64,000 nucleotides of DNA from NCBI RefSeq assembly GCF_030013205.1, contig NZ_CP122648.1; one strand, given 5' to 3'. A program made the translations under genes and the position numbers. The notes beneath the pieces are model-generated. The model saw only the letters and a program-made list of their open reading frames with translations, did no database searches and was not told where the DNA came from. This document shows, one piece after another, positions 37,735-39,050 of the stretch (positions within the stretch are counted from its first letter, which is position 1; each line of letters starts with the position of its first letter). The stretch comes from Escherichia coli. Its GTDB lineage: Bacteria; Pseudomonadota; Gammaproteobacteria; Enterobacterales; Enterobacteriaceae.

Positions 37735-39050
37735 TTACCTGTTTTCCCATAATTTCAGCATCGCTTTGTGCTCTTCCTTAAGCACAATCCGCGAGCGTCT
37801 GGCTCGAATATAACTAATCGCTTCATCAACGGTTTTACAATGTCCGTAACATAACAGCCATGCCCCCACTACCAGCGCACTGCGCGATAATCCCAACGCG
37901 CAATGGACCAGAACGCTGCCTTGCTCTTCGCGTAATGTTTCCAACATCGCCACGGCCTGTCGGAGCTCCCCCTCTTCCGGAACCACCAGATCCAACATCG
38001 GTACACAAAAATAGAGTCGATCTTTTGTCGCTCGTCCGCGAGGGAATTCAAAGGTGACGTCCAGAACCGCATTCTGTGCCGGAATATGTCGTGGAAACGC
38101 CCCTAAATAAACACCAGCAGTAATTTTGCTCACCGGCTCCAGGCGAAGGCAAACCAACGCATAGACAGCCACATCCCGATGCGCCATGGCAATGTCAGCC
38201 AGTAAACGGCGGGCGGGAGTTTCCCTTGACTATCTTTACCTGTTGTTATCGCGCCAAGCCCACCGTACCCACGGCCAATAATGAGTAGCGATAATACTGG
38301 CCAACATAACCAGACTGACCACCATAACTGAAGCATTATCATTAGCTCCATCAACACAATGCACGAGCACGCGCCTGCGACATATGGCAGTGCTATTTTG
38401 ATTCGACGTTGATCAGGTTTCTGATAATTCCAACGACGGTCTACGGGCACCATCCAGTCAATTAACATACCTACCGCCAGCCCTGTGATGACATCAATAA
38501 AATGATGCTGCCAGGTCGTCAGCGTCGAAATGGCGATGAGTAAAAACCATCCGCCGCAGACTTTACGCCACCTCACAGCCAGATGCTGACGAAAGTGACG
38601 CCAAAGTAGCCAGCAGAGAATAATATGCAGCGAAGGAGACTGGTTATAAGGCAGATCAAACAATTCAAGTTGCGAAAATAACCATCCTGTCACCCCACTC
38701 ACTTCAGGACGGATAAAACTAAACTTCAGCGGGTAGAGCAAAAAACCGCAGCAGGCCATTACCGTTGCCAGAATAAGCCGGTGGACCAGTCGGCGCTGCT
38801 CAAATGTCGAGCTACAAACGAACAGCGAAAATCCATATAAAAGATCCAGACTCCAGTAAGGAACAATAGTCCAGGGAAGAAAAGGGATCGCCGTTTCCCA
38901 ACCGAATACCTGACTGGGGATATCATGGTTGTTAAGATCCTGAGTCGCGGTGAACTGATTAAGAAATCCATAGGTGAAGAAGAAAAACGGGGCCAGCAAC
39001 AATAACCAGCCAGCTCCTTGTAGCAATACGTTCCGGTGTTCAGTTATCAC
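37735..39050 (-). pseudogene. ynbD: Membrane-anchored dual-specificity phosphatase homolog, split by a frameshift near 38190-38230
   Basis: N-terminal membrane part in frame A (stops at 38130) and C-terminal phosphatase domain ([10 protein letters not shown] motif) in frame B (opens after a stop at 38230); overlap window contains the G/C run ggcgggcggg; putative GTG start at 39050 overlaps the ynbC stop. Confidence 0.55.

Follow-up and report, generated by a model that had tools for sequence, protein, structure and literature searches.

Two open reading frames on the minus strand share the sequence of the gene ynbD in the stretch of Escherichia coli DNA analysed here (the window, 64,000 nucleotides from contig NZ_CP122648.1). 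Such a split could reflect a mutation that inactivates the gene, an error of sequencing or assembly, a frameshift that the cell reads through, or two working genes made out of one. We describe the locus, place the lesion, follow it through public genomes and weigh these readings against one another. A genuine, inherited loss of one nucleotide, leaving a frameshift pseudogene, is very probably the right one.

The ynbD locus and its two frames

The locus is part of the E. coli chromosome, in the order mcbR ... hrpA - azoR - ynbDCBA - ydbD - paa - tynA - feaB. An earlier note, made from the sequence of the window, had named the split gene ynbD and placed it last in ynbA-B-C-D, and both are supported by a Pfam DSPc match (E=3e-27), the matching gene order and the RefSeq names. 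The order typical of the family, ynbA-ynbB-ynbC-ynbD beside azoR and hrpA, is present, with ynbA, ynbB and ynbC all intact and azoR, the next gene after ynbD, oriented convergently. The gene (37735..39026) is 100% identical to RefSeq ynbD features labelled 'frameshifted'. Its annotated start varies among RefSeq records: some begin a 430-aa protein with the TTG at 39026, others a 438-aa protein with the GTG at 39050, in which case the gene overlaps the end of ynbC.

The frames and the stops that bound them are as follows.

37735..39026, minus strand: ynbD pseudogene, 1292 nt against 1293 nt in intact alleles
38133..39026, minus strand: N-terminal membrane part with PAP2-like motifs, retained
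37735..38150, minus strand: orphaned C-terminal part in its native downstream frame, with a complete dual-specificity phosphatase domain
38130..38132, minus strand: premature TGA in the shifted frame, giving a predicted product of 298 aa, of which the first 292 are native and the last six are AFAWSR
38230..38232, minus strand: TAG closing the phosphatase frame upstream and bounding the overlap of the two frames on that side
38185..38187, minus strand: first ATG of the phosphatase-frame ORF, which is 150 aa as reported by gene callers

That ynbD is spread over two frames was confirmed from the sequence, as were both stops given before: TGA 38132-38130 (tca on the plus strand) terminates the membrane part, and the phosphatase frame is closed upstream by TAG 38232-38230. 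The two open frames overlap by roughly 100 nt. The membrane part lies in a 331-aa ORF (38130-39125, minus strand) whose ATG at 39125 is inside ynbC and is probably not used as a start. The phosphatase domain lies in the 150-aa ORF (37735-38187, minus strand, different frame), of which codons 1-12 are out-of-frame and non-native, and no Shine-Dalgarno-like sequence is visible upstream of its ATG at 38187.

Four motifs mark the domains on either side of the break.

38706-38726, minus strand: KFSFIRP, PAP2-like, in the N-terminal part
38625-38639, minus strand: SPSLH, PAP2-like, in the N-terminal part
38481-38516, minus strand: third PAP2-like motif, of 12 residues, in the N-terminal part
37879-37908, minus strand: phosphatase P-loop (HCxxGxxRS), in the C-terminal part

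The N-terminal part scores 21.5 bits with PAP2_3 and 16.4 bits with PAP2, both under the Pfam gathering score, and contains the motif-like segments and hydrophobic stretches; in an intact ynbD allele the similarity to PAP2 and PAP2_3 in Pfam is likewise weak. YnbD has been treated as a putative PAP2 protein and aligned to the PAP2 consensus regions (PMC7413402). The C-terminal ORF matches Pfam DSPc (PF00782) with E=3.4e-27 over profile positions 1-132 of 133. NCBIfam has no model specific to YnbD, the sole match being a far-below-cutoff one to PRK12361. Just past the P-loop (RSALVVGAW), at window position 37865 on the minus strand, there is a Gly where intact alleles carry Ala (VVAAW), a non-synonymous difference common to genomes XJ6.1 and CFSAN018748.

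The K-12 counterpart is YnbD (b1411), a membrane protein of the PAP2/dual-specificity phosphatase family, 430 aa long and encoded at the same locus between ynbC and azoR. It is ~96% identical to the window sequence at the nucleotide level, and the PAP2-like motifs and the HCxxGxxRS P-loop are common to both. The window has one T fewer, and hence a 298-aa truncation rather than a two-domain protein.

A single missing T in the inter-domain linker

The earlier note had deduced an indel of one base, in either direction, and had implied that it lies at a G/C-rich run within the two-frame overlap. The indel is real and is a -1 deletion, TTTT to TTT, located about 55 nt away from that run.

38151..38153, minus strand: lesion, TTT on the coding strand (AAA on the plus strand) against TTTT in intact alleles
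38208..38217, no strand assigned: G/C-rich run GGCGGGCGGG, not the indel site

In a MAFFT alignment with the intact alleles of GF60, the K-12-like JME66, O157:H7 2149 and O170:H18, the sole gap within ynbD is in the T run (38151-38153/4), ~20 nt upstream of the premature stop. The run GGCGGGCGGG is ungapped against the intact alleles and holds no site that varies from intact O170:H18. Intact alleles read CGT TGG TTT TGC CTT/CGT CGC CTG GAG, and the window reads CGT TGG TTT GCC TTC GCC TGG AGC CGG TGA. When one T is put back a continuous 430-aa ORF results, so that a single indel accounts for the whole change of frame.

The last residue in the native frame is F292 of 430, which places the break in the linker between the domains (DSPc starts at residue 306), and the six aberrant residues AFAWSR precede the stop. 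Replication slippage in a short homopolymer is a likely origin of such a deletion.

Natural division of the gene in other bacteria was a further reading, and the public sequences point away from it. All four of the T4 alleles opened (GF60, JME66, O157:H7 2149 and O170:H18) carry a continuous ynbD CDS, of 430 or 438 aa by annotation, and each makes one continuous 430-aa ORF, so the suggestion that orthologues might be naturally split did not hold. A phosphatase-domain search of public contigs returned short ORFs only, and no natural two-gene ynbD orthologue among them. Two candidates were looked at and set aside. One, a distant 'split' ynbD of 63% identity from another enterobacterium (L015, Logan contig of ERR028496), has an in-frame TGA and is not a natural split; the other, an ORF with only the phosphatase domain (P0009), sits in a heavily fragmented assembly region. 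The phosphatase-only ORFs examined elsewhere are further broken copies. In L015 the TGA (3992-3994) follows SLPW in the same inter-domain linker and is found in three sequencing runs (L015, L016 and L017); the neighbourhood of this homologue is the same, with ynbB, ynbC, azoR and hrpA.

Distribution of the deletion among genomes

The earlier note had left the choice between an inactivating mutation and an assembly error, the latter meaning that ynbD is really intact and that one T of the homopolymer was dropped in base-calling or assembly. The mutation stands. An error can be rejected, since 21 complete genomes, each produced independently, and at least 183 public contigs carry exactly this deletion; we consider the chance that an error explains the split negligible.

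The counts come from several searches. A 1501-bp query spanning ynbD was matched with 100% identity in 18 complete genomes, all from pig or wild boar; the five records opened among these come from Denmark, South Korea, France, Japan and Belgium. Exact matches to a 61-mer with the deletion at its centre were found in 21 complete genomes. These are 21 of 3812 matching genomes; the ~3,800 others differ, and the listed T4 examples show a 1-nt gap. Searches of NCBI and Logan assemblies turned up the exact 150-aa C-terminal ORF on 183 contigs and its N-terminal counterpart on 174; a second allele with the same lesion (ΔT), whose form of the 150-aa ORF is that of GMF065, occurs on 323 contigs. In all eight of the ΔT RefSeq records opened, from the 21 genomes, PGAP labels ynbD a 'frameshifted' pseudogene.

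Homopolymer indel errors do occur in long-read assemblies, and two close relatives of the window have private single-base indels: in K_EC180 one A of an A-run in ydcF is missing at 32469, and paaK of ETEC1748 has one A too many, at 48584. On the other side, the T run is merely 3-4 nt long, the 21 complete genomes belong to unrelated projects, some of them with Illumina reads, and are joined by hundreds of contigs, and the deletion is also seen on diverged haplotypes alongside other lesions. The French O139:H1 ST1 strains W13-16 and P15-25, for instance, were assembled with Unicycler from PacBio RSII and Illumina MiSeq reads (PMC8798679). The genes with private indels (ydcF of K_EC180, 32469-32474, and paaK of ETEC1748, 48584) are also labelled frameshifted by PGAP, and the window is intact at both; these indels arose in assembly or as private mutations, in contrast with the shared ynbD deletion.

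Over 25 kb the window is essentially identical, at 100%, to 17 genomes that include O139:H1 ST1 edema-disease strains, and by this likeness it belongs to an O139:H1 ST1-like pig clone. The 'frameshifted' ynbD of O139:H1 ST1 edema-disease E. coli in RefSeq (KZW92_RS03255 in W13-16, IGX36_RS12860 in K_EC180) is the same allele, with no difference. In the pig clone ΔT is the sole lesion of ynbD. A clone-mate from Japan, EC556, has a 9-bp in-frame deletion in aldA relative to the window (30767-30775), its product being 3 aa shorter.

Three further genomes carry ΔT on other haplotypes: XJ6.1 (cattle, China), JNEC-KY178 (human, Japan) and GMF065 (human, USA) share the T3 run and its flanking 61-mer with the window. 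XJ6.1 and JNEC-KY178 have lost a further 1 bp at 38739 and 7 bp at 38358-38364, and GMF065 has two added nonsense codons; the window has none of these. The matches in XJ6.1 and JNEC-KY178 fall 9 nt short of the intact gene, and a second, frame-restoring deletion was considered for them and dismissed: the extra deletions are far upstream and leave a stretch filled with stops. Extra deletions or nonsense codons in three ΔT genomes, with none in the pig clone, are a possible sign of relaxed constraint, the substitutions being too few for dN/dS. Further lesions of this kind in the sister ΔT alleles are what a decaying pseudogene looks like.

The ΔT alleles differ among themselves by up to ~1.4% (GMF065 against the window). 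A single origin is not proven, because this is as much as they differ from some intact alleles. Either ΔT arose once and was moved by recombination, or it recurred at the T run.

One genome suggests how the allele may travel. CFSAN018748 (NZ_CP028192.1) is identical to the window over ~13 kb (~32.1-45.4 kb) except for one SNP at 41393, and its flanks are 1-3% diverged. The shared block spans hrpA-azoR-ynbDCBA-ydbD-pdxI. Judged from this mosaic, a ~13-kb block including the frameshifted ynbD may have been swapped by recombination between two pig-associated backgrounds. Elsewhere in the comparison, the window carries tynA (59620-61929) unbroken, as a 769-aa ORF, and in CFSAN018748 the gene is annotated as frameshifted. 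Copies of IS200C are inserted near ydcO/ydcL in CFSAN018748 (16171-16629 of the compared stretch L005; near 16770 of the window) and between opgD and ydcH in EC556 (37955-38413 of the compared stretch L009), and the window has neither at these positions; the differing places indicate that the element has recently been active in these pig lineages.

Recoding, domain fission or gene loss

A shared deletion might still be read through. Under this reading full-length YnbD would be restored at the T run, either by the ribosome (a programmed -1 frameshift) or by slippage during transcription, and indeed a -1 shift at TGG TTT GCC, beside the short T run, would regain the native frame. The site itself has little to recommend it: on direct reading CGT TGG TTT GCC fits no X XXY YYZ slippery heptamer, and a run of three T is much too short to make transcription slip. 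Nor is there a stable structure in the 91 nt downstream of the T run, where the minimum free energy of -22.5 kcal/mol compares with a mean of -25.6 for shuffled sequences (z=+0.96), or an Rfam frameshift element matching at the ynbD site. The two-frame arrangement is also not conserved (the four opened T4 alleles are single-frame, and the T3 61-mer is confined to 21 of 3812 genomes), and the sister ΔT alleles gather more disruptions. We therefore give recoding almost no credence.

Functional fission of the gene deserves closer attention. It would have the 298-aa PAP2-like protein stay active and the phosphatase be translated separately, by re-initiation either at a GTG over the new stop or at ATG 38187. 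The break falls within the inter-domain linker with both domains complete, ΔT is the only lesion in the pig clone, and at the premature stop there is a GTGA overlap with a GGAG upstream.

38131..38140, minus strand: GGAG-CCG-GTGA, where a phosphatase-frame GTG shares bases with the premature TGA and GGAG lies 3 nt before the GTG

Only through this site could a free phosphatase domain conceivably be made, and that is speculative. It is native coding sequence (CTG GAG CCG GTG AGC, L-E-P-V-S) that is also present in the four aligned intact alleles, so the GGAG/GTG arrangement is ordinary there, and its 3-nt spacing is under the usual. Around the lesion a promoter and terminator scan gave nothing, with no promoter-like site on the coding strand in the scanned interval 37600-38400. 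A free phosphatase would be without a membrane anchor. In other ΔT lineages the N-terminal part is lost or further stops have appeared, which argues against retained selection, and the search for orthologues yielded no natural two-gene form, the distant copy L015 being broken by its in-frame TGA. Functional fission by either start is thus very unlikely, and the version in which the PAP2-like protein is active and a soluble 132-aa phosphatase is re-initiated at the GTG is a shade more improbable still.

Plain loss of the gene is the reading that we retain. The missing T shifts the frame after F292 and brings in the stop six codons on, at TGA 38132-38130. The predicted product is a 298-aa membrane protein that would keep the PAP2-like part and lack the cytoplasmic dual-specificity phosphatase domain, which would be left untranslated in the other frame. 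We infer that the function of the two-domain enzyme is lost. No polar effect on the neighbours is expected, because ynbD is the last of ynbA-B-C-D and azoR is convergent.

What is known of YnbD fits with such a loss being borne. It is the fourth putative membrane PAP2 protein of E. coli, has no function ascribed to it, and failed to complement mutants in C55-PP or PGP phosphatases (PMC7413402). A K-12 ynbD knockout has been made, and a strain without all four PAP2 genes is viable under standard conditions (PMC7413402); both of these live under such conditions, so that YnbD is dispensable in K-12 and its loss tolerable. The neighbouring gene ynbB, a paralogue of cdsA, is not essential and has been linked to the synthesis of the glycolipid MPIase (PMC6362211). 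A literature search found nothing under the name 'ynbABCD', and 'ynbD' matched mostly abbreviations for yeast media.

The lesion is already known, being an ordinary lineage-specific frameshift pseudogene flagged in public annotation. The present analysis shows that this lineage-specific pseudogene is real, not a product of assembly, and moves the lesion to its correct place. Were domain fission true after all, the ynbABCD lipid pathway would have been rewired in the pig-adapted O139:H1 ST1 clone, and this would not be plain gene loss. As a pseudogene, the ΔT allele could mark the O139:H1 ST1 edema-disease clone together with a few related haplotypes. It adds evidence that YnbD is dispensable in nature, and strains with and without the lesion provide a ready comparison for work on the ynbABCD lipid genes.
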